Below are positions 24,990-40,025 of a stretch of DNA of 64,000 nucleotides, one piece after another; position 1 is the stretch's first letter, and each line of letters opens with the position of its first letter. The notes beneath the pieces are model-generated. The model worked only from the letters and a program-made list of their open reading frames with translations. It was not told the origin of the DNA and did not search any database. A program made the translations under genes and the position numbers. Origin of the DNA: a phage. The stretch lies in NCBI GenBank assembly GCA_014686905.1, contig GCA_014686905.1_4093.1. One strand, given 5' to 3'.

Positions 24990-24990
24990 T

Positions 24991-25380: not shown

Positions 25381-26457
25381 TTAAACACAAGTAGACAGGG
25401 GAAGCTCCTAGTGAACAACCTTTATGTACAGGCGAATTGTTAAAATTCAGCCTGGACAAATGCGATCACTAGGATTCTCCCCAGGCTAAACCCCGTAATC
25501 ATAGGTAGTCATAAGTAATCATATATAAACATTTATATGAGCACCGTAGAATCACAGAATGATTATATATGATTCAGTACTGATTAGTATAGACAAGAAT
25601 GCTCAAGAATGCACGGGAAGGATTCAGTACTGATATGCCACTAAGTAGGCAGAGGAAGTCTGCCGTACTTTTTAGTTTCCAAGCTCCTTTTCCATTTTTC
25701 AAATTACATCAAATGTAATCAAAAGTAATCACGCAATGATTAGTACTGAATTATTACTTTCACCTTAATTTCAATTACCCCTTTACCCTTCGGGGTAAAA
25801 TTCAATTACCCCTTGAGGCTCCAGCAAAAAGTTGGTTAGTACTCCATCCTAAATCTCGATCCTAAAAATTTTGGAGTACCTATGAAATAAAAGTTGGATC
25901 TTCGAAAGTTGAAATTTACGTTGGGACGTTTATGATTTGTGGGATATAATGATGTTTGTAGTCGGGTAGTTCTCAAGAATATCAGTACTGAATAATGAAA
26001 GAAAGCTATTGACATTATGATTCAGTACTGTATAATGTTCTACATAGAGAGATGAGTTGCTGCGAACAATTCATTTACTCTATCTCCTGTCGTGAGACAG
26101 TACAGAAAAGATAGTTCCTCCTGTGGTGGTACATCTTTTTGAACCTCATATGAAAATCGTAATAACAGTACTGATATTAACAGAATGGTGTCAGTACTGA
26201 TTTTAATCTAAAGCATTATGCCACCAGCTTGTGCTGGTGGATTCCCTCTAACAGTATTCAGTACTACATGATGGTCTTCATCCTCCTAGGGTAACATAGT
26301 GAGGGCTATGATGGCAGTACTGAATACTCCCTTTCAAAAGATAGATCTATGGTATAGTACTGACGGATTTTGGGTGTAGTTACCCTGGATGGATTTTGGG
26401 CGTAGATATGTCTAGCCCTCCAGAAGTCTGGAAGTAAAGATGGCTATCCATCTAGAC

Positions 26458-26520
26458 GGCTAAACGGCTAGATGGCTGGATGGCTAGACGTTTGGACGGC
26501 TAAACGGCTAGATGGTTACA
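26458..26520. repeat. short tandem repeat unit ACGGCTAAACGGCTAGATGG (x2, with related GGCTGGATGGCTAGACG between)
   Basis: Direct reading of 26440-26545. Confidence 0.55.
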
Positions 26521-27161
26521 CGTCTGGAAGTATAGACGGCTAAATCAAAATTTTATTTTGTTTTTCCAATAGTTCCCCTACCGCGTGGGGATAGTTTCCC
26601 CGCAGTATCTGGCGTTAGATTTTTCTGAATCTGGAATCATTATCTTATAAACTGGGGGCAATGTCAACGACCTGGACGGATATTTTTAAAAATTTTTTCA
26701 GTACTGAATTTTGGGCGTAACTATGCACCCGGTGGGCTTGAGTCTTTCTCGACTTGATGGAACTATTATACAGTACTGGAAAAATAAAGCAATACCCTGG
26801 ATGAAAAAAGTTTTAATTAATTTGCTTGCCATCCTGGGCCGGACTATGGTACTATATTTCAGTACTGAGAAAGTGCGTTTACCTGCTAGGGTGCGGGAGT
26901 GTATCCTTTTTTTATATCTTGAATTTTGGACGGATCTTCCCACCCCCTGGGGTATCCGCTTTCTCGCGTCTATGTAGTAATTATACGCTTTTTCAGGATC
27001 AAGTCAATACCTAAAAACAAAATAATTGAAAATAATTTAACGCGTTTAAACGGCCCGTAACGCCCTGGAATGATTAGAATGGTGCAAATGTATAGCTTAG
27101 GTGTATTAATGCGTTAGAATGCGTCTGAGGCCGTTTTATGGGGTGTAGTAGTGATTTGGTT

Positions 27162-27252
27162 GATTCAGTACTGAATAATAGTACTCCTATATAGAAAGAT
27201 AGTTCCCCTGGATTGATTCAGTACTGAATAATAGTACTCCTATATAGAAAGA
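27162..27252. repeat. 38-bp direct repeat GATTCAGTACTGAATAATAGTACTCCTATATAGAAAGA (x2, 15-bp spacer)
   Basis: Identical copies at 27162-27199 and 27215-27252. Confidence 0.7.
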
Positions 27253-27283
27253 AAACTATTTTAAAAGTATTTGTAGAAAGTAC

Positions 27284-27311
27284 TTGCACCGTACTGATAA
27301 AAGCGTATAAT
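27284..27311 (+). promoter_or_regulatory. sigma70-like early-type promoter (TTGCAC, 16-bp spacer, TATAAT), representative of about 35 similar promoters in 27.3-45 kb
   Basis: TACTTGCA(A/C)...GCGTATAATGTTTTACATC recurs before most small genes in this region. Confidence 0.6.
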
Positions 27312-27325
27312 GTTTTACATCGAGA

Positions 27326-27342
27326 GCGGGAACACTTCCCGC
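27326..27342 (+). promoter_or_regulatory. conserved 5' leader stem-loop (GCGGGAA-CAC-TTCCCGC), representative of about 25 instances
   Basis: Stem-loop sits a few nt after the predicted start site (...TTTTACATC) and 10-20 nt before the SD; stem sequence varies between copies with compensatory changes. Confidence 0.55.
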
Positions 27343-27366
27343 TACACTTTAAGAGAGATTAATACG

Positions 27367-27729
27367 ATGGCAACTCAAATCACCAAAATTATTGCTAACC
27401 TGGTTAACTTCCGCGACGAGATGAAAGATCTTCCGGCGGCGACGGTTAAAACTCACATTGACGCATACCGCGAACTGATTAAAATGCTGCCGCTTAAGCG
27501 TGAACAATACGCCGCTACCGTGATGCTTGATGCGATGATCCATAAGATGATCGCCAGTGATTTGACGATGGTTTATCAGTATATGGGCGAAAATTTCGCG
27601 GTGTGTAGTAAGCCAGTACCAGGGATGGCAACAACTGAGGAATTGCACGGCTTAAACTTAAAACAAGATGCATGGGATAATATGCCTCGTTTCCTGGTAT
27701 GGGCTGACAGTGGCAAAATTTACAAATAA
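27367..27729 (+). CDS. hypothetical early protein
   Basis: Start moved to MATQITKI after SD AGAGAG (track ORF began inside promoter/leader). Confidence 0.6.
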   Translation: MATQITKIIANLVNFRDEMKDLPAATVKTHIDAYRELIKMLPLKREQYAATVMLDAMIHKMIASDLTMVYQYMGENFAVCSKPVPGMATTEELHGLNLKQDAWDNMPRFLVWADSGKIYK

Positions 27730-27824
27730 GTTTAATAAAGTACTTGCAAACTATGTTTAATGGCGTATAATGTTTTACATCAGGTGGGGAATAGTTCCCC
27801 ACTATATAAGAGGATTAAAAAAAA

Positions 27825-28064
27825 ATGGCTAAATCAAAAATGTTCTTAGGTCACAAAAACAAAACTCATTGGAATGTAAGCCTGTGGATTAATAACGATG
27901 AGGGATTGTATCGGTTGGCCCTGGACTTTATTGCCGCCAATACTAATCGCAATGATGCGGCCCGTCATATGATGTTATTTTTAGAACAGACTGGACAAGA
28001 TAAAACACCGGACGGATTCAAATATAGCACTACTGCGATCCGTGCGGCGATGGTTGGAATGTAA
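27825..28064 (+). CDS. hypothetical early protein
   Basis: Promoter plus leader hairpin GGTGGGGAATAGTTCCCCACT upstream; SD AGAGGA. Confidence 0.6.
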   Translation: MAKSKMFLGHKNKTHWNVSLWINNDEGLYRLALDFIAANTNRNDAARHMMLFLEQTGQDKTPDGFKYSTTAIRAAMVGM

Positions 28065-28150
28065 TAGAATTTATTTAAAGTACTATCATTTTTTTGCGAT
28101 AGTACTTTATAATAGTGTTTTATTCATACACCAACGATAAGGGCAACAGC

Positions 28151-28417
28151 ATGAATATTAAGTATTTTGCGACGCGTGAACAAGCTCGGATCGCCGCACG
28201 CCAGGACGGGGCAACGTTTAAAGATATGGGAGCGGGATCGGCAAGTGGTGAACGTTGGGCCATTGTAAAGCGTAGTACGGCCAGATCATTACAGTACTGG
28301 TTAGCGGCCTTAAAAAGTCCCGATAGTGTATCGCGTCGAGTGGTAGAAATAAAGCTCGACCGAAAGGGCAACCGCGTGACCGTGTACCGTACTAAAAAGA
28401 TTGCAGTACTTGAATAA
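28151..28417 (+). CDS. hypothetical early protein; paralog of 39568-39963
   Basis: MNIKYFATREQARIAARQDGATFKDMG...DRKGNRVTVYRTKK parallels MITKFYATREAARIVAREEGAAFKDMG...DRKGNRVTVYSKRR. Confidence 0.6.
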   Translation: MNIKYFATREQARIAARQDGATFKDMGAGSASGERWAIVKRSTARSLQYWLAALKSPDSVSRRVVEIKLDRKGNRVTVYRTKKIAVLE

Positions 28418-28504
28418 AAAGTACTTGCAAACTATGTTTAAAGGCGTATAATGTTTTACATCGAGAGCGGGAACTCTTCCCGCCTATAACCTGGAGTAAT
28501 AAAA

Positions 28505-28735
28505 ATGACTAATATGTATATGACTGAAGTTAAAACCGTAAAAGATACTACCACGAATAAAACTACTTACTTACAGCGGATCTGTGGTGTATGGCAACGT
28601 ATCAGCAAATCAAAGTACTTTAAATTAACATCATATGCAAACCGTTCTGATTCATTCAGTACTGAAATAAAAGGTAATAAAGTACACCAATACGGCACTT
28701 ATTATTATTACAGCCTGGACGCGATTGCAGTATAA
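28505..28735 (+). CDS. hypothetical early protein
   Basis: Promoter plus leader hairpin GCGGGAACTCTTCCCGCC upstream; SD GGAG. Confidence 0.55.
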   Translation: MTNMYMTEVKTVKDTTTNKTTYLQRICGVWQRISKSKYFKLTSYANRSDSFSTEIKGNKVHQYGTYYYYSLDAIAV

Positions 28736-28984
28736 GCAGTTTACAAATCTTTACAATTGCCGGTATTGACTTATTTTGTCAGTACTGGCATAATGTATTC
28801 ATTGGCAGATAAGCCGTAGCCCATAGGGTGCGGGAGTGTATCTATAGAAAAATTAGTTTAGTATAGTTACAATTGTGCACCCGGTGGGTTAGCTGTTGTC
28901 ATGGGGTATATTATGCCAGTACTTGATAATGCTGTCAATACTTTTTTTTACTATCCAGTACAGAAAACTATTTTTAAAAAGTAC

Positions 28985-29012
28985 TTGCAAACTATGTTTA
29001 AAGGCGTATAAT
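28985..29012 (+). promoter_or_regulatory. early-type promoter upstream of structured leader element
   Basis: TTGCAA, 16-bp spacer, TATAAT. Confidence 0.55.
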
Positions 29013-29018
29013 GTTTTA

Positions 29019-29096
29019 CATCAGGACGGGGAACGAAATAAGTAACTTCCCGTTAAGTAGCCCAGGAGTAAGGCACACGAAAAACTCCCCTGATAA
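29019..29096 (+). ncRNA. candidate small structured RNA / leader element between tandem promoters (copy 1)
   Basis: About 78 nt starting CAGGACGGGGAACG..., internal complementarity ACGGGGAA/TTCCCGT; near-identical copy at 38373-38450; no ORF. Confidence 0.3.
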
Positions 29097-29162
29097 AATA
29101 GTTTGACAAATGTTTTTAAAAGCGTATAATACTTACATCAACTACTGAATGAGGGTTATAAA

Positions 29163-29774
29163 ATGAAAACTATCACTACTACTACTTTCGTTATGGATTT
29201 TTCTGAATTGAACGCAGAACAAAAAACGTCAGCTATCGAACTGGTTCGGGAACGTGAAAAAAACTCAAACGACAATTATTTTTCTGAAAGTGAAATTGAA
29301 TACTATAAAGAAACAGTACTACCGGAATATGGCATTAATGACGCTGAAATACAATTCAGTGGTTTTTGGTCCCAGGGTGACGGTGCATCAATCAGTACTG
29401 ACCACGTTGACGCAGTGAAGTTTTTACGCAAGGTTAGAGCGTTAACTAAGTATCGCTCAATCCGTCACCTGCTGAATGAAGATGATTTGGCGATGAGTGT
29501 AAAGCGTTCTCACTCCCACTACTCGCATGAGAATACTGTAAGCGGGTACATTGAATCGGCTTACACTGATTTAACCGCAAAACAAGAAACGTTAGTTAAT
29601 GAGCTTGAGGAACTACTCACTGATACTATTCGTGAATTGTCCCGTAAGTTGTACCGTGATTTAGAGAATGCATATGAGGATCAATTCACTACTGAAAACA
29701 TTACGGCACTGATTGAGGGTAACGAATATCAATTCAATGTTATTGATGGCGTAGTAGAATCAATCGAATATTAA
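29163..29774 (+). CDS. hypothetical acidic protein
   Basis: 203-aa ORF; SD GAGGG; second promoter TTGACA...TATAAT at about 29103-29130. Confidence 0.65.
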   Translation: MKTITTTTFVMDFSELNAEQKTSAIELVREREKNSNDNYFSESEIEYYKETVLPEYGINDAEIQFSGFWSQGDGASISTDHVDAVKFLRKVRALTKYRSIRHLLNEDDLAMSVKRSHSHYSHENTVSGYIESAYTDLTAKQETLVNELEELLTDTIRELSRKLYRDLENAYEDQFTTENITALIEGNEYQFNVIDGVVESIEY

Positions 29775-29866
29775 TTCAAAAAGTACTGGACACTAAGCAA
29801 TAAAGGCGTATAATACTTTATATCGAGAGCGGGAATAGTTCCCGCTACTAATGAGGAATACTACAA

Positions 29867-30031
29867 ATGAATACTTTTACCTTCGCTCAATTGAACGCCC
29901 TGGATGTATTGTCTGATGCTTTGCGGGATGCAACTGAAAGCGGTTTATTTGACAATGTTGACATTCACCCTGATGTAATTAATAATTTTTGTGATGCTAT
30001 CGCAGAAGTACTGGAAGATCTAAAAAAATAA
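29867..30031 (+). CDS. hypothetical small protein (54 aa)
   Basis: Promoter plus leader hairpin GCGGGAATAGTTCCCGC then SD GAGGAA; hand-translated. Confidence 0.45.
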   Translation: MNTFTFAQLNALDVLSDALRDATESGLFDNVDIHPDVINNFCDAIAEVLEDLKK

Positions 30032-30119
30032 TAGAAAGTACTTGCAATTAGTTTTTAGTACTGTATAATAGTTTACATAGAGGGGAGAAATGGTTCTCCC
30101 TGGTAATGAGGAAAATAAA

Positions 30120-30341
30120 ATGGCTAATATCACTACTCTTTCTCAACTGGAAGCACTGGTTAAATCTATGCGGGAACATGCAGACAATATCGGCGTAAAA
30201 GATCCAGCCGTTTGCTTCTGCGACGAAATGAATGATGATACACTGGTAATAGCAGAAGTACAAGATATTTCTAACTATTCATCGCGTTACACTGGCGGCG
30301 TAGCAAATAAAGGTGACTTCTGTTTATACCTTACCAAATAA
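30120..30341 (+). CDS. hypothetical early protein
   Basis: Start moved to MANITTLSQ after SD GAGGAA; leader hairpin upstream. Confidence 0.55.
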   Translation: MANITTLSQLEALVKSMREHADNIGVKDPAVCFCDEMNDDTLVIAEVQDISNYSSRYTGGVANKGDFCLYLTK

Positions 30342-30346
30342 CAACG

Positions 30347-30376
30347 CGGGGAGATAATAACTCCCCGTTACTTTTT
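30347..30376 (+). terminator. intrinsic terminator-like hairpin
   Basis: CGGGGAG-ATAATAA-CTCCCCG followed by T-rich tract. Confidence 0.5.
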
Positions 30377-30585
30377 CAGTACTGAATCATTTAATAGACG
30401 GATCTCGGCACCCTGTGGGTTAGTGACTGTATCGTCTTTATGTAGTAATTATGCCAGTACTGGATGCAGTTGTCAACAATTATTTTTCAAATACTTTTTA
30501 TTAAAATACTTGCTATTAGTTTTTAAACGCGTATAATGTTTTGCATAGGGGGAGCGGTTCCCCCTGGTAACTAAGGAATAAGAAA

Positions 30586-30819
30586 ATGCTTGAACAAATC
30601 AAATCAACGTCTGCTAATGTAACGGGAACGGTATCACACTTTATTGGTGATGAATCGCGGGGCGTTCCCTATTGTGCTGTACATGTAAACACTGAGGGTA
30701 ACTACTGGTTTACGGTTTACGGATCATATTCATTTGGACGGCCAGGGCATCAAAAAATTCTGGATAAAGTACAACCAACGGGTAAAAATATCACTGCCGA
30801 AATGTTTTATAAAAACTAA
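30586..30819 (+). CDS. hypothetical early protein
   Basis: Promoter, leader hairpin GGGGGAGCGGTTCCCCC, SD AAGGAA. Confidence 0.6.
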   Translation: MLEQIKSTSANVTGTVSHFIGDESRGVPYCAVHVNTEGNYWFTVYGSYSFGRPGHQKILDKVQPTGKNITAEMFYKN

Positions 30820-30906
30820 TAAAATACTTGATAATAGTTTTTAGTACTGTATAATATTTTACATAGCACGGGGGAGCGGTTCCCCCTGGTAACTAAGGAT
30901 AATCAA

Positions 30907-31206
30907 ATGAAAATTGCAATCATCGCCCTGGCTTTATCTGTTTCCTCTTTCTCTGTTAATGCGTCGTTAGATGTACCTAGTGAAAAATTCATTCAGTGCA
31001 CCGTAGCGATGACCGATGAAAGTACTGGCGAGATTGTTTTAAAGGATTTAGAGATCCAGCCAGAAGCATTTAAAAACGGCCCGTTCCATGAAGAAGACGA
31101 AAACGGTAGCACAACAATTTATTATGATGCAAGTACTAAACGCGGTTCGGTCACTGTAATGGATACAGAGAAAGTAACACACACAGGAGTAATTAACTGT
31201 TTATAA
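30907..31206 (+). CDS. secreted/periplasmic small protein (signal peptide)
   Basis: N-terminus MKIAIIALALSVSSFSVNA-SLD has n/h/c regions and AxA-like cleavage site. Confidence 0.6.
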   Translation: MKIAIIALALSVSSFSVNASLDVPSEKFIQCTVAMTDESTGEIVLKDLEIQPEAFKNGPFHEEDENGSTTIYYDASTKRGSVTVMDTEKVTHTGVINCL

Positions 31207-31212
31207 ATCACT

Positions 31213-31240
31213 AGCCCACTCATACAGTGGGCTTTTTTAT
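31213..31240 (+). terminator. intrinsic terminator
   Basis: AGCCCACT-CATAC-AGTGGGCT followed by TTTTTT. Confidence 0.7.
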
Positions 31241-31434
31241 TTTTGTAGTACTGCATACTTTGAAAATAGTTTTAAGAAAGTAGTTGACATTACCGCAGAA
31301 AAGCGTAGAATGTATTACATCAAGACGGGGAGCACTAAGTAGACCGCCAGTAAGTCGAACGAAAAACTGGACACGTCGAGAAAACTTTGATACACTATCT
31401 AACGTAAACTAAACTTTAATTGAGGAATTATATA

Positions 31435-31917
31435 ATGGCTAATGTAAAATCATTCATCAAAGCACTGGTAGCAAATGAAACTAACGTAGCGGCAGAGATC
31501 CTGGCAGAACTGGATAACGATACCATGAAAGCAGTACGCAACAATTTTAACATTGCGTACAGTGAAGCTAAAGAACTGCAAGCCAAAAAGGTAGCAGAAC
31601 TGGAAGAACAGAAAAAAGCCCGTGAAGCAGAACTACAAGCAACAATTGAAAGTATCCAGTCGGCGGTGTCTGGATTGGATCTGGAAGTGGTTGTTGAAAT
31701 GGCACATAAAGCCCTGGCGGTTAAGTACGGTGAAGATAAGCCGGAATCTAAGCCTAAAAAATGGATTCAGGAACGCGTAGCGGTAGTACTTGATAACGGT
31801 GAAGAACATTTGATTCCTGTACGCGGTAACTGCATTGCGGTAGTACTGGACGCTATCAAAGAAAGCGGTATGACTCGCGAGGAATGGATCGAAGCTCATC
31901 GCAAAGTTGAAGCATAA
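31435..31917 (+). CDS. hypothetical protein (Lys/Glu/Ala-rich, probably helical)
   Basis: Start moved to MANVKSF after SD GAGGAA; long 5' leader. Confidence 0.6.
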   Translation: MANVKSFIKALVANETNVAAEILAELDNDTMKAVRNNFNIAYSEAKELQAKKVAELEEQKKAREAELQATIESIQSAVSGLDLEVVVEMAHKALAVKYGEDKPESKPKKWIQERVAVVLDNGEEHLIPVRGNCIAVVLDAIKESGMTREEWIEAHRKVEA

Positions 31918-31937
31918 CAATTAAAGTACTGAATCAA

Positions 31938-31966
31938 TAGCCCACCTTAAACAGTGGGCTTTTTTG
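31938..31966 (+). terminator. intrinsic terminator
   Basis: AGCCCACC-TTAAA-CAGTGGGCT followed by TTTTTT. Confidence 0.65.
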
Positions 31967-32201
31967 TGTCTATAGTATTCCAGTCCACTAGCACCGCCTA
32001 GAATCGATTCTAACGCATTAAACTGATTATCTGATACATCGCCCTAGCTGGTGGCGTTAAGGTCGTTAGAAAGCGATTGAGAGTGTTTAAAGTATTTTGC
32101 AAAAAGTAATAAAAAGTACTTGCATGATTAAGAGATTAGCGTATAATGTTTTACATCGAAAGGGGAAACGGTTCTCCTTCCAAATCAAAGGAATCAAAAC
32201 A

Positions 32202-32429
32202 ATGGCTATTATCATTACTCGCGTATCTGGTACTACTGGCAATTCTTCTACTGTTGCAGTCATTACTAACAAGGCAGGTGCGGAATTGCAAAATGCAATG
32301 AATACCTGGGCCGTTAATGAGTTCGGTCAGTGGGCAAGTGTAGCATACATTGAAACCTATCAAGTGCCGACCATTAGTTTAACGGATCTTGGTGTGGAAC
32401 GTATCCTTTGCTTGGATGAATTAAATTAA
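32202..32429 (+). CDS. hypothetical early protein
   Basis: Start moved to MAIIITRVSG after SD AAGGAA; promoter plus leader hairpin upstream. Confidence 0.55.
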   Translation: MAIIITRVSGTTGNSSTVAVITNKAGAELQNAMNTWAVNEFGQWASVAYIETYQVPTISLTDLGVERILCLDELN

Positions 32430-32514
32430 AAAAGTACTTGCAAAGTAAATCGAATAAAGTATAATACATTACATCAAGGGGAGAAATGATTCTCCCCACT
32501 ACAAGGAAACTAAT

Positions 32515-32658
32515 ATGAAAACTTGTCAATGTGGTAAAAAATCTATTACTGGTTTAAAGCGGGGCGTTGCTCTTTGCCAGTACCATTATAATTTACAAGT
32601 ATGGGGTAAAGAATGGGCCGACCAGGTGGAAGCAATTAAGAAAGCAAAAAGTAAGTAA
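32515..32658 (+). CDS. small Cys-containing protein (47 aa)
   Basis: Promoter plus leader hairpin GGGGAGAAATGATTCTCCCC; SD AAGGAA; hand-translated. Confidence 0.4.
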   Translation: MKTCQCGKKSITGLKRGVALCQYHYNLQVWGKEWADQVEAIKKAKSK

Positions 32659-32670
32659 AAATATTATCAC

Positions 32671-32708
32671 AGTACTATTGACATAGTTTGATAGTACTGG
32701 CATAATAG
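32671..32708 (+). promoter_or_regulatory. promoter module class 2 with flanking inverted repeat (AGTACTAT-TGACATAGTTTG-ATAGTACT, CATAAT), copy 1 of 3
   Basis: TTGACA, 17-bp spacer, CATAAT; near-identical modules at 35408-35446 and 43114-43150. Confidence 0.55.
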
Positions 32709-32747
32709 ATTTTATCAAGACAACATATTAATTTAAGGAATACTAAA

Positions 32748-33071
32748 ATGGCTAAAACTATCATTAACACCGTTTCCCTGGCTGCAATCCGTGCAATCAA
32801 TGTTGACGGTAAACGTTGGACTGATTCATATGGCAATACTTATCATTCTTGTCATGTAAGCGTCGAACTGGATAACGGTTTGAATGTTCTGGCGGTTGAA
32901 TCATTTACTTATGGCTATGAAGATGCATATCAACAAACGGCGTTAGATCTATTAAAGGAATCAGTAGACGGGCTTAATACTGATGAAACCTCCCTTACTC
33001 GTTTGTGCAATGATCTTAATATCCCGTTGCATTGTACTGTACAGAATGTTAAACGCAAAAAAGATCTTTAA
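32748..33071 (+). CDS. hypothetical protein; paralog of 39149-39472
   Basis: Shared motifs RWTDSxGNTYHSC, TFTYGY, VKRKKD. Confidence 0.65.
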   Translation: MAKTIINTVSLAAIRAINVDGKRWTDSYGNTYHSCHVSVELDNGLNVLAVESFTYGYEDAYQQTALDLLKESVDGLNTDETSLTRLCNDLNIPLHCTVQNVKRKKDL

Positions 33072-33151
33072 TTAGCTTTACTTTATGCAGATACTTTGAT
33101 ATAGTGTCTGCATAGGGGAAAGAAATTAAATTAACTTAAGAGGATCGTATA

Positions 33152-33421
33152 ATGAAAAATATCAGTACTTTAATCGATGCAGGTACACATGTTCGGCGGT
33201 CTATGGTTGCAACCAGTACTACAAAACAAGTAGCGAGCGGTTATCTTGTATTTGTGCACGATGGTAAACTCCTGGAACGTTCAATCAATTTTGATGTTAA
33301 AAACAATTGCCGTTTTATTATCTTTAAGCGTGAACAATATAAAATTGATTTACCAGCAAAGCCCATTAGCGGGGCGTACAACGTGCAATCATTGTTTGAG
33401 CGTCAACCTTACACCTATTAA
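33152..33421 (+). CDS. hypothetical early protein
   Basis: SD AAGAGGA upstream. Confidence 0.55.
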   Translation: MKNISTLIDAGTHVRRSMVATSTTKQVASGYLVFVHDGKLLERSINFDVKNNCRFIIFKREQYKIDLPAKPISGAYNVQSLFERQPYTY

Positions 33422-33472
33422 TCAAAACATCGTTAGCGGTCGATTTAGGCCGCTTGTATTGGGGATTATACC

Positions 33473-33643
33473 ATGAACGTTAATCAAGTACTGAATGAGA
33501 TCGAAAGCATCATTAAACCAATGAAACGCATTGATGCTATGTTAACACCGGAAGAATGCCGCCTTTATGAGCGTTACAGTGTGGAACAAGCCCAGGAAAT
33601 GGCCCGTATCCGTCCGGTTGCCAGTACTGATAAGGCGGCGTAA
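33473..33643 (+). CDS. hypothetical small protein (56 aa)
   Basis: Hand-translated; stop overlaps next start (TAATATG). Confidence 0.45.
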   Translation: MNVNQVLNEIESIIKPMKRIDAMLTPEECRLYERYSVEQAQEMARIRPVASTDKAA

Positions 33644-33644
33644 T

Positions 33645-33854
33645 ATGCTTACTGTACAGGATAAGATCGACATCTTAAAGGTTAATATGTATGTGATTGA
33701 TGCCGTACCTGGTAAAGTATTTGCATACGATGATTCTAATCGCAGTCCGTTTTATTGCAGTCATGTAGTTGGATACGTGCCGTTGGCGTATGTTATAGAA
33801 AGAGTGGTTGATGCAGCATACAAACATTTTTTAGAAAATAATACTTGCAATTAG
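33645..33854 (+). CDS. hypothetical small protein
   Basis: Start moved to MLTVQDKIDIL; translationally coupled to upstream ORF. Confidence 0.5.
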   Translation: MLTVQDKIDILKVNMYVIDAVPGKVFAYDDSNRSPFYCSHVVGYVPLAYVIERVVDAAYKHFLENNTCN

Positions 33855-33924
33855 TTTTCAGTACTGTATAATGATTTACATCGAGAGCGGGAATAGTTCC
33901 CGCCTCACTTTTAAGGAATATGAA

Positions 33925-34071
33925 ATGAAAGCATCAAAAAAGAGTAATACTAAGAAAGCATGTTCACCTTTCGCTGGGGTATTCCCTTTACGTTTCGTTG
34001 ATGAAGTGGTTTCCTACCCGCCTGGCCTTACTCCTGAGATGGTAGAAAGTTTGCGTAAATCTAAAAAATAG
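33925..34071 (+). CDS. hypothetical small basic protein (48 aa)
   Basis: Start moved to MKASKKSN after leader hairpin and SD AAGGAA. Confidence 0.45.
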   Translation: MKASKKSNTKKACSPFAGVFPLRFVDEVVSYPPGLTPEMVESLRKSKK

Positions 34072-34152
34072 TACTTGCAATTAGTTTTTAAACGCGTATA
34101 ATGTTTTACATGAAGGGGAGAAATGATTCTCCCCAATAACAGGAGAAACAAA

Positions 34153-34305
34153 ATGAAACAATATAATGCTCGGTTTGATGTTACTATCGGTAACGGCAAA
34201 GGTCAATTCTCTTTCAGTACTCGCAAAAGTTATACAGAAAACTTCCTGCGTAATTGTGCACTGACCGCCGCTCAAATTAAACATTATTTTCAGGCTAAAA
34301 AATGA
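34153..34305 (+). CDS. hypothetical small protein (50 aa)
   Basis: Start moved to MKQYNARFD after SD AGGAGA; leader hairpin upstream. Confidence 0.45.
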   Translation: MKQYNARFDVTIGNGKGQFSFSTRKSYTENFLRNCALTAAQIKHYFQAKK

Positions 34306-34391
34306 AATCATTTGCTTACTATAGTTCTGCGGTGATCGGTGCATTGATCGCGGCGTTGTTAGTAACCTATCTATTCTTTATGGTGATTTAA
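34302..34391 (+). CDS. tiny membrane peptide (29 aa)
   Basis: ATGA overlap with upstream stop; single hydrophobic helix. Confidence 0.35.
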   Translation: MKSFAYYSSAVIGALIAALLVTYLFFMVI

Positions 34392-34535
34392 ATGAATCCA
34401 ACAGGCTTAAATTATAAAAGTTGTTCGGCGTTTACGAAAGCAAATAAAGCGAATGCACGTAAAGCGAAAGTACAGGAGTACATCAAGCAAGGCATGACGC
34501 GAAAGGCGGCGATTCTAAAAGCTAAAAATAAATGA
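34392..34535 (+). CDS. small basic protein (47 aa)
   Basis: Abuts previous stop; Lys/Ala-rich. Confidence 0.4.
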   Translation: MNPTGLNYKSCSAFTKANKANARKAKVQEYIKQGMTRKAAILKAKNK

Positions 34536-34537
34536 AA

Positions 34538-34575
34538 AAAGTGGTTGACTCCGGTCAGCCATTTTGCTATTATAT
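34538..34575 (+). terminator. composite hairpin terminator plus promoter (TGGTTGAC-TCCG-GTCAGCCA, TTTTGC, TATTAT)
   Basis: Same architecture as 1157-1204; recurs at 38211, 41480, 43738. Confidence 0.55.
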
Positions 34576-34599
34576 ATTCATTGAGAGATAGCTCACTAG

Positions 34600-34624
34600 C
34601 CCACAGGGTGCATAAGTGTATCTA
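34600..34624 (+). promoter_or_regulatory. conserved intergenic motif CCCACAGGGTGCATAAGTGTATCT
   Basis: Near-identical motif at 38269-38292, 41542-41565, 43797-43820; related copies near 36270 and 28810; reverse-orientation core near 30410 and 26727. Confidence 0.5.
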
Positions 34625-34745
34625 TTATATAAGTATTGAGTACTGAAAACTATTTTTAAAAAGTACTTGCAAACTATCTCAATAAGCGTATAATGTTTTA
34701 CATCGAAAGGGGAAACGGTTTCCCCTGGTAATAAGGAAACAAATC

Positions 34746-35087
34746 ATGACTATCTCAATTGCTCAATCTAACTTTGAAAATGAAATCATCGCCCAGGCAC
34801 TGCGTTTAAATGATGGTCGGGCCGAAATTAATTACGGTTTCAATTCAGGCGGTTGCGAAAACTATCAGTACTTTGTAACGGCTGATGGCGGTGTCCTGGG
34901 TATCAATACAGTTATTGTAAACATCCAAAAAATTAATTTCAATGATCCAGACGATAGCCAGTTTTACATCACTGGCGTAGACGTGAACTATGAGGATGAC
35001 TCACTAACTGATGATCACACTGGCGAGCGGTTAGAAAGTGCATACGGTGAAGATGATTATCAGTCCGGTCCAGAAGATTTCGAATAA
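34746..35087 (+). CDS. hypothetical acidic protein
   Basis: Promoter plus leader hairpin AGGGGAAACGGTTTCCCCT; SD AAGGAAAC. Confidence 0.6.
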   Translation: MTISIAQSNFENEIIAQALRLNDGRAEINYGFNSGGCENYQYFVTADGGVLGINTVIVNIQKINFNDPDDSQFYITGVDVNYEDDSLTDDHTGERLESAYGEDDYQSGPEDFE

Positions 35088-35182
35088 TATAAAAAATAGT
35101 TTGACAATAGATTATAGTACTGTATAATAGTTTACATCAAGGGGAGAAAAACTTCTCCCCACTAACAGAGAGAGAAAACAAA

Positions 35183-35395
35183 ATGGCTAATATCCGGTCG
35201 AAATTAAAAAATGCAAAACAAGTTTTATTTTCAGATCATGAATACTTTAATAAAGATATTACAGGAGTTACAAGTATCAAGGAAGTAAAAGAAAAAACCG
35301 GCGTTTTGTGTGATGTGCGATTAGTTGGAACATTTGGGAATAACGTGCTATATCGCTGCGGTGATTACAATTTTACACTGACTATCATTAACTAA
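35183..35395 (+). CDS. hypothetical early protein
   Basis: TTGACA promoter, leader hairpin GGGGAGAAAAACTTCTCCCC, SD AGAGAGAGAA. Confidence 0.55.
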   Translation: MANIRSKLKNAKQVLFSDHEYFNKDITGVTSIKEVKEKTGVLCDVRLVGTFGNNVLYRCGDYNFTLTIIN

Positions 35396-35407
35396 AAATA
35401 TTATCAC

Positions 35408-35446
35408 AGTACTATTGACATAGTTTGATAGTACTGACATAATAAC
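35408..35446 (+). promoter_or_regulatory. promoter module class 2 with flanking inverted repeat, copy 2 of 3
   Basis: AGTACTATTGACATAGTTTGATAGTACTGACATAATAAC. Confidence 0.55.
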
Positions 35447-35478
35447 TTTTATCAACTACACTACTAAGGAATTAAAAA

Positions 35479-35658
35479 ATGGCTATCATCGCAAAAACTG
35501 AAATCGTTGGTCTGGATTCTATCATCATGACGTTTGAAGATCAAAAAGGTATGTATGTAGTTTCCTATGGTGATTATGTTCGGGAGTATGAAACGGTAGA
35601 CGAAGCCTTTGAAAGTTATATTCGCCAGGTGAATAAAGCATACGATGACTACCGCTAA
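35479..35658 (+). CDS. hypothetical small protein (59 aa)
   Basis: SD AAGGAA; hand-translated MAIIAKTEIVGLDS... Confidence 0.45.
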   Translation: MAIIAKTEIVGLDSIIMTFEDQKGMYVVSYGDYVREYETVDEAFESYIRQVNKAYDDYR

Positions 35659-35757
35659 AATATATTACCAGTACTATTAAATCTATTGACAACGTTTGAT
35701 AGTACTGTATAATAAGTTTTATAAACAGTAGTTAACTTAACCTAAGAGAGAAACAAA

Positions 35758-35901
35758 ATGATCGCACTGGATTCATTCATCGACGCAGTACTGGCAAAAA
35801 CTGGCGAGGATCTGACCGCAGAACAATACGCGATGATCGAGCAATGTCAGCAAAACGGTAAATCGGTGAAAGATACTGTTAAGATTATCCGCAAGATGTA
35901 A
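35758..35901 (+). CDS. hypothetical small protein (47 aa)
   Basis: SD AAGAGAGAAAC; followed by hairpin. Confidence 0.45.
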   Translation: MIALDSFIDAVLAKTGEDLTAEQYAMIEQCQQNGKSVKDTVKIIRKM

Positions 35902-35907
35902 TATTAT

Positions 35908-35936
35908 AGCCCACTGGTTAACGCTGGTGGGCTTTA
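35908..35936 (+). terminator. terminator-like hairpin
   Basis: AGCCCAC-TGGTTAACGCTG-GTGGGCT, weak T tract. Confidence 0.45.
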
Positions 35937-36006
35937 ATCATTTACCCTATACAATGCCAGTACTAAACCGTTTATCTCATTAGAATGCGTTACAGGACGT
36001 TTAACA

Positions 36007-36204
36007 ATGATTAGCATGAAATCAGTACAAAAACAAATAGAAACATTATCAAAAATTAAACGTAAACAATACTCCTTAGAATATACAATCAATGGTAACT
36101 ATCATCTAATGAAAGAAAATAATTTTATAGTCATTGATGAATCATTGCAAATCATTAGTATAGTACTGAAAGCATTAATCAATGACAGAAAAAAATTAAA
36201 ATAA
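36007..36204 (+). CDS. hypothetical small protein
   Basis: 65-aa ORF; weak SD. Confidence 0.45.
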   Translation: MISMKSVQKQIETLSKIKRKQYSLEYTINGNYHLMKENNFIVIDESLQIISIVLKALINDRKKLK

Positions 36205-36295
36205 TTGTTGACATACAATGCCAGTACTGGCATAATACTTACATCAAGACGAGAACGTCACCAACCCATAGGGTGCACAAATGTAACTATATAAT

Positions 36296-36375
36296 ATCGA
36301 TCAATAAATGATCAAAAAAGTACTGGATCAATTTAGCATAAGGCGTATAATTCTGATCAATTCTTGATCAAAGGC
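36296..36375. repeat. cluster of five GATCAA (three as TGATCAA) repeats within 73 bp, overlapping a TATAAT box
   Basis: GATCAA at 36299, 36310, 36326, 36355, 36366. Confidence 0.55.
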
Positions 36376-36532
36376 AATAAACGTAGTTGAAATTATATAG
36401 AAAGTACAAAGGCGTTACCATTCGTGGTAATGCTGGGGAATATGTAGTATCATACGGTTTGAATAAAATCAGTACTAGTAGTATAATCGTAGCATTGCAG
36501 TACTATAGTATTTTTATAATGAGGTTAAAATA

Positions 36533-36790
36533 ATGGCTGTAGGATTTGCGAAGGACGGGGCCGAACAAGACGAGATTAACGCAGTGATTCAGGCCGCCGT
36601 AAACCACGCTAGAAAGCAAATTAACGCACAAATAGAATCACTGGTACATTGCCTCGACTGCGGCGATATAATCCCTGAGAAACGACGCCAGGCCGTTAAG
36701 GGATGTAAGTACTGCATAACTTGCCAGGAGGATCATGATAGTACTTTTAAACGTCCCCCGCGTAATTGTTGGCATAGATCTATGAGATAA
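36533..36790 (+). CDS. DksA/TraR-family C4 zinc-finger protein
   Basis: CLDCGDIIPEKRRQAVKGCKYCITC: two CxxC pairs with typical spacing, small size. Confidence 0.65.
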   Translation: MAVGFAKDGAEQDEINAVIQAAVNHARKQINAQIESLVHCLDCGDIIPEKRRQAVKGCKYCITCQEDHDSTFKRPPRNCWHRSMR

Positions 36791-36853
36791 AAAGTATTGA
36801 CAGTACTGAAAGATAGTGTATAATATTTTATATCTTAACTGAGGATTGAAATC

Positions 36854-37210
36854 ATGGGAATACAACATATCACGCGTACTACTGACAATGGCGAGATCAC
36901 TGGCTATCAAGTACAGGGCAAAGTAGCACAATTGCAGTACTGGTTTGTTAAACGTGGAATCATTGCACCGGATCTTGATTATGACCGTGTAGCGTTTATT
37001 GATTCTCTTTATGTTGATCCTGATAGTCGGGGCAATGGTGAAGGTAACGAATTAATGAATGCCTTTATTGATGCCGCCGATGATTCAGATTGTATCATTT
37101 TAGAATGCGATACAGGAGAAGATAACGCCTTCAATCTTAAAGAATGGTACGAAGGTTTCGGATTCGAGGTACTGATCGATAGTGAATATCCTATCATGAT
37201 TTTATCATAG
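36854..37210 (+). CDS. putative GNAT-type acetyltransferase-like protein
   Basis: LYVDPDSRGNGEGNELMNAF resembles the GNAT acetyl-CoA-binding loop; weak. Confidence 0.4.
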   Translation: MGIQHITRTTDNGEITGYQVQGKVAQLQYWFVKRGIIAPDLDYDRVAFIDSLYVDPDSRGNGEGNELMNAFIDAADDSDCIILECDTGEDNAFNLKEWYEGFGFEVLIDSEYPIMILS

Positions 37211-37288
37211 TACTTGCATTTAGTTTTCAGTACTGTTATAGTACTTACATCAAGGGGAAACATCTTCCCCTACTAAGAGGAAATAAAA

Positions 37289-37477
37289 ATGGAAAACTTA
37301 TCAAGTATTTTAGTACAAGATGATTTCGGTAATCCTGGAAGTGCTATCATTGTTCGGGGTAATAAAGCAACGTTTGTTATTGCTGGTGGACCTGTACAGC
37401 GTAGCATTAAAAATAATGCTGTTACCATTAATAATGTACGCTATCGCTTAGATAAAGAATTGATTCATAAACTTTAA
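37289..37477 (+). CDS. hypothetical early protein
   Basis: Promoter, leader hairpin GGGGAAACATCTTCCCC, SD AGAGGAAA. Confidence 0.55.
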   Translation: MENLSSILVQDDFGNPGSAIIVRGNKATFVIAGGPVQRSIKNNAVTINNVRYRLDKELIHKL

Positions 37478-37561
37478 AAAGTATTTGACAATAGATTATA
37501 GTACTGTATAATAAGTTACATGAAGGGGTGAAATGATTCTCCCCACTAAGAGGAAAGAAAA

Positions 37562-37774
37562 ATGCAAGGTCAACTAATCGTTCGTAAATGGTCTGATACT
37601 AACGAAAAACCGTGGGATGTACAATACATCGGACCGGATGGGGTATCACGTTATCAGCCTGGCGTAACGCATAGTACTGAGCAATTCGCAAACGCTCACC
37701 GCGAACGCCTGTTAGAATCCATGAAACAGGGATTCTGTGAAAAATTCATTCAAGATCATTGGCTGAAAGATTAA
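37562..37774 (+). CDS. hypothetical early protein
   Basis: TTGACA promoter, leader hairpin, SD AGAGGAAAG. Confidence 0.55.
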   Translation: MQGQLIVRKWSDTNEKPWDVQYIGPDGVSRYQPGVTHSTEQFANAHRERLLESMKQGFCEKFIQDHWLKD

Positions 37775-37791
37775 TATAAGGAGTACAGCTT

Positions 37792-37884
37792 ATGCAAATG
37801 AATCCGATGATTATTGTTTTAGCTGTACTTATGATCATTCATGCAATAGTAGAAGTATTAACGCAATCAGGAGTAATAAAATGA
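37792..37884 (+). CDS. tiny membrane peptide (30 aa)
   Basis: SD AAGGAG; single hydrophobic helix. Confidence 0.35.
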   Translation: MQMNPMIIVLAVLMIIHAIVEVLTQSGVIK

Positions 37885-38054
37885 TTCAAGTAGAATTATC
37901 AGTACTGAAAGATCTGTTTTATCGGTTAGGTACTACTGGCGAGTATCCTAAAAGTGATACCGCAAAACTTTTTGTATCACTCGACTTATGGCAACGCGAA
38001 CAATTAGTAATGTCCTGGCGTAAAGGTAAAGCAGATAGCGAGGTGAAAGCATGA
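37881..38054 (+). CDS. hypothetical small protein (57 aa)
   Basis: ATGA overlap with upstream peptide. Confidence 0.45.
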   Translation: MIQVELSVLKDLFYRLGTTGEYPKSDTAKLFVSLDLWQREQLVMSWRKGKADSEVKA

Positions 38055-38200
38055 AAGAATTCTTATTCGAAGTAGTGTTTCAAGGTGTCGGTAGTAACCA
38101 ACTGATTCGCTCAAGTGGTTACAATGTTAACCAGGCATGGAATAACATTAAACAAATGTACCCGAACGCTATCACCTATCGCAACCCGAAACAAGTTTAA
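38051..38200 (+). CDS. hypothetical small protein (49 aa)
   Basis: ATGA overlap; followed by composite terminator element. Confidence 0.45.
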   Translation: MKEFLFEVVFQGVGSNQLIRSSGYNVNQAWNNIKQMYPNAITYRNPKQV

Positions 38201-38210
38201 AAATAATTGA

Positions 38211-38250
38211 AAAAGGGATTGACTCCGGTCAGTCCCTTTGCTATTATATA
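38211..38250 (+). terminator. composite hairpin terminator plus promoter (GGGATTGAC-TCCG-GTCAGTCCC, TATTAT)
   Basis: Same architecture as 1157-1204. Confidence 0.55.
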
Positions 38251-38372
38251 CGCATAGAAACAAATCAGCCCACAGGGTGCATAAATGTATCTATTGTTTG
38301 CTGGTGGCTAGTACTGAAAACTATTTTTAAAAAAGTACTTGCATTGTACTTAGAATCAAGTATAATGTTTTA

Positions 38373-38450
38373 CATCAGGACGGGGAACGAAACAAGTAAC
38401 CCCGTTAAGTAGTCCAGGAGTAAGACATAAGAAAACCTCCCCTGATAAAA
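38373..38450 (+). ncRNA. candidate small structured RNA / leader element between tandem promoters (copy 2)
   Basis: Near-identical to 29019-29096; bracketed by two promoters. Confidence 0.3.
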
Positions 38451-38515
38451 TAGTTTGACAATAGAAAGTAAACGAGTATAATACTTACATCAACCACTGA
38501 TAAGGAAACATTAAA

Positions 38516-38791
38516 ATGCGGATTCTACTGACAGCTAACGAAATCGAACAAGTACTGACTACTAACCTGGAAGACTGGAAACGTGAAGCAGATATCCAGG
38601 CGGTTCAACGGCTTAACGATGAGTTAACGCCGGATGACTTAAGCAAGATTGTAGATCCTCAATTCTACGAAGATATCCACGACACCGCGTTAAGCGTCGA
38701 GGATGTACTAGATAAGCACTACATTGATATTGATTTGCAGGTTTACGGTCGTAAAAACTTTATCACTATTCACGACATTTACAATAATTAA
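38516..38791 (+). CDS. hypothetical acidic protein
   Basis: SD AAGGAAAC; 91-aa ORF. Confidence 0.6.
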   Translation: MRILLTANEIEQVLTTNLEDWKREADIQAVQRLNDELTPDDLSKIVDPQFYEDIHDTALSVEDVLDKHYIDIDLQVYGRKNFITIHDIYNN

Positions 38792-38877
38792 GTATTGACA
38801 AAGTATCTTAGTACTGTATAATAGTTTACATCGAGAGGGGGAATGGTTCCCCTCCTAACAAAGAGAGAGAAATAAAA

Positions 38878-39060
38878 ATGGCTAAATGCACTATCTGTAA
38901 GAAAGAAATCGTATTAGTTCCAAGTGCCCGTGAACGTGCCGCTCGGTTCGGTGGCAAACCGTCAGACTATACAAAAATGTTTACTGTCCATGCAGCTTGC
39001 CAGGTAGCAAAACGTTCACAAGAAAGCGTAGAATTAATGCGTAAACTTTCCAAAAAATAA
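38878..39060 (+). CDS. hypothetical small basic protein
   Basis: TTGACA promoter, leader hairpin GAGGGGGAATGGTTCCCCTCC, SD AGAGAGAGA. Confidence 0.55.
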   Translation: MAKCTICKKEIVLVPSARERAARFGGKPSDYTKMFTVHAACQVAKRSQESVELMRKLSKK

Positions 39061-39148
39061 GTATTGACAAAGTATCTTAGTACTGTATAATAGTTTACAT
39101 CAAGTGAGGGGAAACGGTTCCCCTCCTAACAAAGAGAGAGAAATAAAA

Positions 39149-39472
39149 ATGGCTATGATCCTTGCCCAGAAAGTAGAACTGAAAATTGTAACCTCCTTTG
39201 ACATTAAAGTTAATCGGTGGACTGATTCACACGGCAATACTTACCACTCTTGCTACGTGTCTGCGTTAATTGGTGATCGTTGGGAAGACCTGGGACATGA
39301 AACCTTTACATACGGTTACGGCACACAAGGCGAATACACGGGCTTGGAGATCATTAAAGAAACCGTTATAGGTTTCAACCCGAAAGAAAAAGTTATTCAC
39401 CGCATCGAAAAAGAGATTAACAAAGAAATAACAGTTCGATACAACGATGTAAAACGTAAGAAAGACATGTAA
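39149..39472 (+). CDS. hypothetical protein; paralog of 32748-33071
   Basis: Start moved to MAMILAQK; shared RWTDSHGNTYHSC...TFTYGY...VKRKKD; promoter plus leader duplicated from the 38878 unit. Confidence 0.65.
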   Translation: MAMILAQKVELKIVTSFDIKVNRWTDSHGNTYHSCYVSALIGDRWEDLGHETFTYGYGTQGEYTGLEIIKETVIGFNPKEKVIHRIEKEINKEITVRYNDVKRKKDM

Positions 39473-39567
39473 TAGAATCCATTTAAAGTACTATTTGACA
39501 TTGCCCAGATAGTACTTTATAATAGACTCTAACTTGTAGTACTAACTCAACTAATAGGATGTATACC

Positions 39568-39963
39568 ATGATTACTAAATTCTACGCTACCCGTGAAGCT
39601 GCCCGTATTGTTGCACGCGAGGAAGGAGCAGCATTTAAAGACATGGGCAAAGATGCACCGAAAGGTCAACGCTGGGCCGTACAGTTCAAAGAAATCTCTG
39701 ATATCGTGAATTCACCGGAGCCAGTACTAACAGCAGCAGAACTAAAACGAGCGGATTTACTGGCGGCAGTACTTAACGCACAAGATGAATTTATCGCTGA
39801 TTCTGATATCAAAGTACAGACAAACCATACCGCTTGGACTCACGCGGATCACCTGGCAAACCTTAAGCGTCCAAGTGAACTGGTACGCAACCAGAAAGAG
39901 ATCCGACACGACCGTAAGGGTAATCGTGTAACAGTATACAGTAAACGCCGCCAGGTTATCTAA
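39568..39963 (+). CDS. hypothetical protein; paralog of 28151-28417
   Basis: MITKFYATREAARIV...DRKGNRVTVYSKRR. Confidence 0.6.
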   Translation: MITKFYATREAARIVAREEGAAFKDMGKDAPKGQRWAVQFKEISDIVNSPEPVLTAAELKRADLLAAVLNAQDEFIADSDIKVQTNHTAWTHADHLANLKRPSELVRNQKEIRHDRKGNRVTVYSKRRQVI

Positions 39964-39985
39964 TAACTTGCAGTACTAACAACAC

Positions 39986-40010: not shown

Positions 40011-40025
40011 ATAGGATAAACTAAA

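Follow-up and report, generated by a model that had tools for sequence, protein, structure and literature searches.

Among the closest described systems are the stoperators of mycobacteriophages L5 and Bxb1, i.e. repressor sites that are reportedly scattered throughout the phage genome as well as present at the early promoter; they are said to be asymmetric words of 13 bp, found in about 30 copies per 50-kb genome in temperate phages whose repressor is known. The palindrome HIP1 (GCGATCGC), iterated many times over in cyanobacteria, is chromosomal and is linked to CGATCG/GATC methyltransferases. Chi, KOPS and DNA-uptake words are asymmetric and strand-biased genome-wide, and T4-type phages are said to carry mobile early-promoter cassettes, termed PeSL. 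The RaK2-like jumbo phages (121Q, PBECO4, RaK2, GAP32, CBB and many therapy candidates) are known mostly as gene lists. An earlier note on DNA from one such phage had drawn attention to three look-alike promoters that share an inverted repeat. The larger finding, as it appears from the sequences compared here, is a clade-wide iterated palindrome, AGTACT, that is built into early promoters, together with a zone that carries a polar variant of this word.

The window, i.e. the whole 64,000-nucleotide stretch of phage DNA analysed here, is 90-99% identical to the Asteriusvirus jumbo coliphages 121Q, PBECO4, slurp01, Turkey5 and phAPEC6, and is by its sequence that of an Asteriusvirus-type (121Q/PBECO4-like) jumbo coliphage. 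For phage fEgEco12 the genome ends have been mapped experimentally, giving a direct terminal repeat (DTR) of 20,993 bp (PMC13070987). Position 1 of fEgEco12 aligns to position 25,644 of the window and the end of its DTR to approximately position 45,230, and it is by this homology that the coordinates of the terminal repeat in the window are set (Table 1). The authors who described CBB took the terminal repeat, by inference, to be the early region. In the window, small genes follow one another on its + strand at intervals of about 300 bp, it has 39 sigma70-like promoters, and all three look-alike promoter modules fall inside its ~20 kb. Gene calls are our own crude open reading frame (ORF) calls, and expected counts were obtained from base composition or from dinucleotide shuffles. 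Shortly before the right terminal repeat, the - strand at 8163-21072 holds about 11 paralogous genes of ~380-400 codons each, whose fEgEco12 counterparts bear the annotation 'chromosome condensation regulator / DNA condensation protein'.

The Chi sequence of E. coli (GCTGGTGG) occurs 12 times in the window against ~0.4 expected (roughly estimated by hand from the base composition). The + strand has nine copies, all of them inside the terminal repeat (26233, 32047, 35923, 37382, 38300, 40648, 42055, 43632 and 43855), and the - strand has three (14508, 14763 and 26221); the + strand is likewise favoured in CBB (7:2 in its repeat) and in RaK2 (8:1 in its early region). Oriented in this way, Chi would affect RecBCD that enters at the right end of the genome.

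Table 1. Coordinates in the 64,000-nucleotide window of the promoter modules, the terminal repeat, the iterated word and its two gaps.
Feature	Position	Strand	Details
DTR early region	25644..45230	+	Homology to fEgEco12 1-20,993; 125 AGTACT; 39 sigma70-like promoters
Promoter module, copy 1	32655..32725	+	AGTACT 32671-32676; -35 TTGACA 32678-32683; AGTACT 32693-32698; extended -10 TGG+CATAAT 32699-32706; predicted for ORF 32748-33071
Promoter module, copy 2	35392..35462	+	AGTACT 35408-35413; TTGACA 35415-35420; AGTACT 35430-35435; CATAAT 35438-35443; predicted for ORF 35479-35658
Promoter module, copy 3, degenerate	43097..43160	+	AGTACT 43113-43118; TTGACA 43120-43125; AGTACT 43135-43140; -10 TGTAAT 43143-43148; upstream of ORF 43177-43434
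Double-AGTACT pair 22 bp apart, then TATAAT	28079..28113	+	-35 weak
Double-AGTACT early promoter (predicted)	30037..30069	+	AGTAC-TTGCAA (shared T); site spacing 20 bp; TATAAT adjoins second AGTACT 30057-30062
Double-AGTACT pair 20 bp apart	37209..37245	+	AGTAC-TTGCAT ... AGTACTGTTATAGT; -10 weaker
Double-AGTACT early promoter (predicted)	39487..39523	+	AGTACT 39487-39492; TTGACA 39495-39500; AGTACT 39511-39516; TATAAT 39518-39523
Iterated palindrome (C)AGTACT(G)	1..64000		255 copies vs 20.8 expected; three frames, genes of both orientations
AGTACT-free island 1	45100..51000	+	Starts at DTR/unique junction; TGTACT 11 times, AGTACA once on + strand
AGTACT-free island 2	53010..60350	+	40 (C)AGTACA(G) on + strand vs 2.6 expected; 0 TGTACT; 0 GTACT vs 6.9 expected; all frames

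The earlier note had described three near-identical modules with a -10 of the form G(G/A)CATAATA, beginning at positions 32671, 35408 and 43114. The first two starts are exact and these copies match the 37-nt pattern without mismatch (32671-32707 and 35408-35444), but the third begins at 43113 and departs from the pattern at two positions (43113-43149), both of them in its -10, which reads GATGTAATA (TGTAAT); no match to the pattern is expected in shuffled sequence. Because this -10 lacks the usual A at position 2, copy 3 is probably a weaker promoter than copies 1 and 2. In copy 1, AGTACT is followed by a single A, TTGACA, a 17-nt spacer that includes the second AGTACT, TGG, and CATAAT at 32701-32706. 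Copies 1 and 2 score 11/12 against the sigma70 hexamers, with a 17-nt spacer and TGn; the module has -35 (TTGACA-like) and -10 (TATAAT-like) elements at the 16-18 nt separation of sigma70-type promoters, and a Shine-Dalgarno sequence (AAGGA/GGGGA) and ATG follow 40-50 nt downstream. The modules are predicted sigma70-type early promoters for host RNA polymerase.

When the modules were aligned with their flanks, as the earlier note had advised, ~60 nt proved to be common to them (TAAAAATATTATCACAGTACTATTGACATAGTTTGATAGTACTGACATAATAACTTTTATCAA) and the sequences diverged beyond. The ORFs on their 3' side (107, 59 and 85 aa) are mutually unrelated and carry the PHROGs label 'unknown function'. A 71-nt version of the module is present in all Asteriusvirus records with 97-100% identity, in 3-4 places per genome copy. 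The three sites are copies of a ~60-bp sigma70-type cassette (A/T-rich upstream sequence, TTGACA, 17-nt spacer, TGn-CATAAT) duplicated before unrelated small early genes. None of the three contains a stem-loop. Terminator/promoter hybrids are found elsewhere in the window (34538-34573, 38212-38247, 41480-41515, 43740-43775, ~1150-1190 and ~2565-2605), in which a 12-bp GC-rich stem-loop (AAAGGGATTGACTCCGGTCAGTCCCTTT) provides, by its loop-side arm, a TTGACT -35 for a TATTAT/TATAAT -10.

The inverted repeat that was said to embrace the -35 and the spacer does bracket both, and consists of two full AGTACT palindromes 22 bp apart; the first is separated from the -35 by 1 nt and the second from the -10 by 2 nt, such that each module presents a dyad site overlapping the core promoter. 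This placement extends well beyond the three copies. In the terminal repeat, AGTACT lies inside the core of about 27 of the 39 sigma70-like promoters: it begins 7-8 nt ahead of the -10 in 16 of the 39, directly follows TTGAC (TTGAC-AGTACT) in 4, and abuts or overlaps the -35 (AGTAC-TTGCAA, AGTACT-A-TTGACA) in ~11. Strong consensus promoters without any AGTACT are nevertheless present in the terminal repeat, at 29103 and 38455. Promoters with two AGTACT sites 20-24 bp apart number 5-7 in the window, and pairs at this distance are ~5 times commoner than the local density of the word predicts. The double bracket recurs in the CBB DTR (n=15) and in the RaK2 early region (n=16), where it is the dominant early form and where the other bases of the spacer have diverged; altogether there are 36 double-site promoters over three genera, in which the sites are kept while neighbouring bases vary.

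The double bracket is a conserved and general feature of early promoters in the clade and is probably functional, because it has been kept in CBB and RaK2 while the rest of the spacer diverged. Since early promoters of three genera are usually built in this way, the three look-alike modules are simply one recently duplicated cassette and not a special subclass. The earlier note was, in part, right: the repeat is conserved and operator-like in its arrangement, recurring in early promoters of CBB and RaK2 whose spacers are otherwise different, but its scope was drawn too narrowly. The proposed separately regulated subclass of three dissolves into the ~27 of 39 promoters with AGTACT in the core, 5-7 of them with the double bracket, and the inverted repeat, held to be peculiar to that subclass, is largely a general feature, because AGTACT is general in promoters and present genome-wide.

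Nor is AGTACT a half-site, as the earlier note had supposed: it is its own reverse complement, i.e. a complete palindrome, with CAGTACTG as the optimum. It is likewise not specific to promoters, since the window has 255 copies and 350 kb of fEgEco12 have 946 (118 expected). AGTACT is the most over-represented hexamer of the window (11.7-fold, the next palindrome reaching 2.3-fold), and the octamer CAGTACTG is found 53 times against 0.55 expected in the window and 213 times against 3.7, i.e. 57-fold, in fEgEco12. In the latter genome the hexamer reaches 6-8/kb in the terminal repeat, compared with ~2.5/kb in the remainder, to which the structural genes belong. Non-coding DNA is richer than coding DNA both in the window (10.4/kb vs 3.8/kb) and in its DTR (11.5/kb vs 3.9/kb); nevertheless ~60% of the copies are intragenic, in both orientations and with no promoter hexamers near, and the sites in the window fall in all three reading frames (62/57/39) of genes of both orientations. 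Codon or amino-acid bias was rejected as the source of the excess because the sites occupy all frames, both gene orientations and non-coding DNA. Enrichment driven by repair was also set aside, given that one-mismatch neighbours (e.g. AGTATT) are not depleted. What remains is a many-fold excess, of the kind seen with HIP1, that extends over all frames of coding DNA and over non-coding DNA alike.

The flanks of the word in the window are symmetric, 45% of the copies being preceded by C and 47% followed by G, as would be expected for a dimer on a palindrome, and G at -1 is reduced to 7%. G before or C after AGTACT is disfavoured in all lineages sampled (the window, RaK2, GAP32, CBB, Yen9-04 and Munch); GAGTACTC is found 0-1 times per sample (0 in the window), CAGTACTG and AAGTACTT are common, and CBB leans to A/T flanks more than Asteriusvirus does. 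The spacing of AGTACT is more even than random (coefficient of variation, CV, 0.885 vs 0.998 +/- 0.038), the largest gap being 1,976 bp where ~2,956 bp is expected and empty 1-kb windows being half as many as expected. Beyond the promoter pairs at 20-24 bp, no helical phasing or cooperative array of sites was detected.

Comparison between phages indicates that the word is maintained. Between the window and fEgEco12 (92% identity), 143 of 160 AGTACT sites are intact (89%), against 77% of flanking hexamers (P = 4e-5), which points to purifying selection and to slower evolution of AGTACT than of its flanks. Across six orthologous genes from four genera (59-80% protein identity) the density is held at ~2-3/kb, some positions being common to 3-4 genera and many having turned over. 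AGTACT is the top hexamer, at 6-7 times expectation, in fEgEco12, RaK2, GAP32, CBB, fHe-Yen9-04 (Yersinia) and Munch (Salmonella), and the RaK2-like clade of enterobacterial jumbo phages holds it at ~1 per 370 bp. The signal is absent from the Pseudomonas relative PA5oct, where the region at 100-130 kb has only a mild excess of CTGCAG/TCTGCA (~5-6-fold, 14 sites in 30 kb), too mild for CTGCAG to be accepted as a counterpart palindrome. It is also absent from the Vequintavirinae coliphage W70 outside one 2-kb patch (14-16 kb of the locus); this patch has 7 of the 8 AGTACT in 30 kb as well as a copy of the module at 83% identity, which suggests a block of early genes transferred from an Asteriusvirus-like phage. 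One 50-kb sample of E. coli K-12 has 3 AGTACT against 11.6 expected. The openly searchable literature, which leaves aside subscription-only papers such as that on the GAP32 genome, contains no mention linking AGTACT to these phages, and yielded no transcriptome or binding study of the clade; the word is absent from the papers that describe the genomes of CBB, RaK2, Sharanji and fEgEco12.

On this basis we read AGTACT as the operator of a putative AGTACT-binding factor, which would shut off early promoters and mark the genome as a whole. We would give this reading a probability of roughly 0.4. We infer protein binding, repression by that binding and a purpose for the genome-wide copies in the following terms. 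The sequence (C)AGTACT(G) would be recognised as a symmetric duplex site, most simply by a symmetric dimer encoded by the phage; a bound pair, with one site at the upstream edge of the -35 and the other at ~ -20 to -14, would occlude the -35 hexamer and the spacer, thereby excluding sigma70 holoenzyme, and early genes would be switched off upon build-up of the factor. The same factor, at the thousand or so evenly spread intragenic copies, would mark, coat or organise phage DNA as distinct from host DNA, in which the word is rare. It counts against this reading that a repressor of roadblock type, given the 2-3 sites in each kb of the late genes, would need to be bypassed or to be absent late in infection.

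The earlier note had suggested that a repressor be sought among the small proteins of the region, and that search, by Pfam, PHROGs, the PDB and fold comparison, yielded no cognate DNA-binding protein. Pfam found no DNA-binding domain in 48 ORFs of the terminal repeat, only a DksA/TraR zinc finger, GNAT, kinase and ParE-like matches, and PHROGs returned only 'unknown function' for the annotated 'regulators' and the three genes downstream of the modules. CBB encodes HTH_37 and PrlF-like proteins, for which no homologue is detectable in fEgEco12. Two early proteins conserved in three genera were considered. That encoded at 33152-33421 gave a mediocre beta-sheet model with no fold match. That encoded at 40026-40280 was rejected as the binder, as it is a ParE/YafQ-like toxin domain protein (PF24732). 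The gene at 40026-40280 is conserved in RaK2 (67%) and CBB (43%), and its product could possibly be a host shut-off ribonuclease.

A symmetric dimer leaves one observation unaccounted for, namely the strict strand polarity of AGTACA in island 2. AGTACT is missing from two stretches of the window (Table 1), and fEgEco12 carries the same two islands and no others. Island 2 has 43 AGTAC on the + strand, all but three continuing as AGTACA, with the same C/G flanks as the palindrome, and includes pentameric (AGTAC)n runs at 56717-56732 and 59549-59559. The corresponding region of fEgEco12 (29.0-37.6 kb) is 79% identical and half of its sites have moved, yet it has 46 AGTACA, no TGTACT and no AGTACT; because the polarity has been kept despite 21% divergence and site turnover, it appears to be maintained by selection. 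The bias runs ~35 kb past island 2, although the word is palindromic genome-wide. The opposite polarity of island 1 is weaker evidence, because several of its 11 TGTACT lie at homologous codons of paralogues. Strict islands are confined to Asteriusvirus; CBB has none and RaK2 only a 75:27 bias towards AGTACA. The island genes gave no Pfam hits, and a search for origin-like repeats between the islands produced nothing convincing. A tandem array of ~25 paralogous genes of ~70 codons (phrog_4148; period ~212-220 bp, with overlapping stops and starts) occupies 45291-51677; it starts exactly at the junction of the terminal repeat with unique DNA and is AGTACT-free to ~51.0 kb.

The main rival explanation, which we retain because the symmetric dimer fails to account for the polarity of island 2, is that the true word is oriented or single-stranded, 5'-CAGTAC-3', the palindrome merely supplying it on both strands to a directional reader such as a translocating enzyme, e.g. 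as a Chi-like site for a helicase-nuclease of the RecBCD type, a KOPS-like translocase site or a primase site, with the promoter positions being secondary; in a Chi-like role it would spare phage DNA while host DNA is degraded. Such a reader would explain why the polarity in island 2 spans all frames and survives in fEgEco12, and why AGTACA shares the flanks of the palindrome and forms pentamer runs. It also accords with the even spacing and short maximum gaps of AGTACT, with its highest density in the terminal repeat beside the DNA ends and with a density at least ~45 times that in sampled host DNA, and the enrichment and orientation of genuine E. coli Chi in the terminal repeat would imply that end-processing enzymes matter to the phage. 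However, it leaves the fixed placement by -35 and -10 in three genera unexplained, the symmetric flanks and the 57-fold excess of the octamer fit duplex recognition better, the polarity of island 1 stems partly from paralogous codons, the strict islands are restricted to Asteriusvirus, and no cognate enzyme was identified; we regard this explanation as unlikely. A composite is somewhat less doubtful, in which the thousand or so even copies of the CAGTACTG word would form a genome-wide self-tag, read by a putative phage factor that silences the DTR early promoters and distinguishes or organises phage DNA, whilst the polar zone beside the terminal repeat would betray that this reader, or a second one, works directionally.

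Returning to the operator reading, its placement evidence could also be taken to mean that AGTACT is intrinsic to the promoter, i.e. that RNA polymerase itself contacts it, as a spacer element or one akin to the proximal UP element, or that an activator or sigma appropriator encoded by the phage does so, and that it raises early transcription. The upstream copy does lie at the proximal UP subsite with an A-tract ahead (AAAAGTACT-TTGACA), and the TG of AGTACTGG-CATAAT is a canonical extended -10. This proposal is nonetheless improbable in view of the ~60% of copies that are intragenic, in both orientations and away from promoter hexamers; moreover, the TG is out of extended -10 register in the class with 16-nt spacers, and the strong promoters at 29103 and 38455 manage without the word.

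Slightly less probable still is a site for a conserved enterobacterial protein, such as the nucleoid-occlusion factor SlmA, that the phage recruits or titrates. The motif is common to phages of Escherichia, Klebsiella, Cronobacter, Pectobacterium, Yersinia and Salmonella and missing from the Pseudomonas relative, which favours a host factor. The SlmA-binding sequence GTGAGTACTCAC has AGTACT as its core, but on each side of it three particular bases, G, T and a purine, are required (PMC3020112). These GTR/YAC flanks are absent at the phage sites and even disfavoured: G is found at -1 in only 7% of copies, GAGTACTC does not occur in the window, and there is one near-match to the SlmA sequence against 0.6 expected, and SlmA sites were rejected accordingly. 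We know of no other host factor with an AGTACT site. A resemblance to a LexA half-site (TACTGTAT) was dismissed on inspection for want of a matching second half.

That a DNA-modifying enzyme of the phage acts on AGTACT, the abundance of the word arising through modification-linked repair or selection, is suggested by analogy with HIP1, for which this was proposed, and strand-specific modification of a hemi-site AGTACA could account for the polarity. A methylation motif is unlikely, however: the only methyltransferases found are Dam-family and short C5 enzymes, none matching AGTACT, and near-cognates such as AGTATT are not depleted, which argues against a repair drive. Methylation of RaK2 DNA has been reported at Dam and CpG sites only (PMC3622015), and AGTACT contains neither; we rate the modification reading as very improbable. 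The same grade applies to the version of the earlier note, i.e. a distinct co-regulated subclass with a dedicated dimeric repressor on AGTACT half-sites of a 30-bp inverted repeat, which draws on the near-identity of the three copies and on an extended form, AGTACTAT/ATAGTACT, that lengthens the symmetry by 2 nt and is found also in RaK2 (10800 and 12016 of the locus compared) and W70, but founders on the generality of the bracket among early promoters, at 20-24 bp spacings and with differing inner sequences, on the genome-wide presence of the hexamer and on the explanation of near-identity by cassette duplication.

For the RaK2-like clade, a word of 6-8 bp that recurs about once per 370 bp over several genera, and that most early promoters carry in their core, gives a concrete point of entry. 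Its existence predicts a specific DNA-binding or reading activity that should be isolable with an oligonucleotide (a CAGTACTG duplex, with CAGTCCTG as its control counterpart). Early shut-off can be probed simply by mutating the word, which also serves as a sequence signature for recognising the clade and its transferred pieces.

Among known systems, two-operator repression of the lambda or LexA type shares with the double bracket the placing of palindromes about two helical turns apart over the -35 and spacer; unlike those operators, the AGTACT sites are of 6-8 bp each, with about a thousand copies elsewhere, and their repressor is putative. The PeSL cassettes similarly place near-identical early promoters before unrelated small genes in a hyperplastic early region, but the three modules are free of the stem-loop, and PeSL-like terminator/promoter hybrids are found elsewhere in the window. 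As with Chi, KOPS and DNA-uptake sequences, density and even coverage appear to be selected whilst individual sites turn over, there is a strong contrast between self and other DNA, and the island 2 variant is polar; AGTACT, unlike these words, is palindromic except in the two islands, and its reader is putative. With HIP1 it shares a many-fold excess of a short palindrome, in coding DNA in all frames, as a trait conserved across related genomes, and differs in being phage-borne, in having no matching methyltransferase and in its fixed promoter positions. Compared with the stoperators, it is a palindrome of 6-8 bp and not an asymmetric word held in one orientation relative to transcription, is present in ~950 copies per 350 kb of a lytic jumbo phage, falls inside genes without regard to frame and has only a putative binder; nevertheless, in both cases one short word would furnish the promoter operator as well as many dispersed copies, and the variant copies of island 2, the only oriented ones, recall the stoperator orientation rule.
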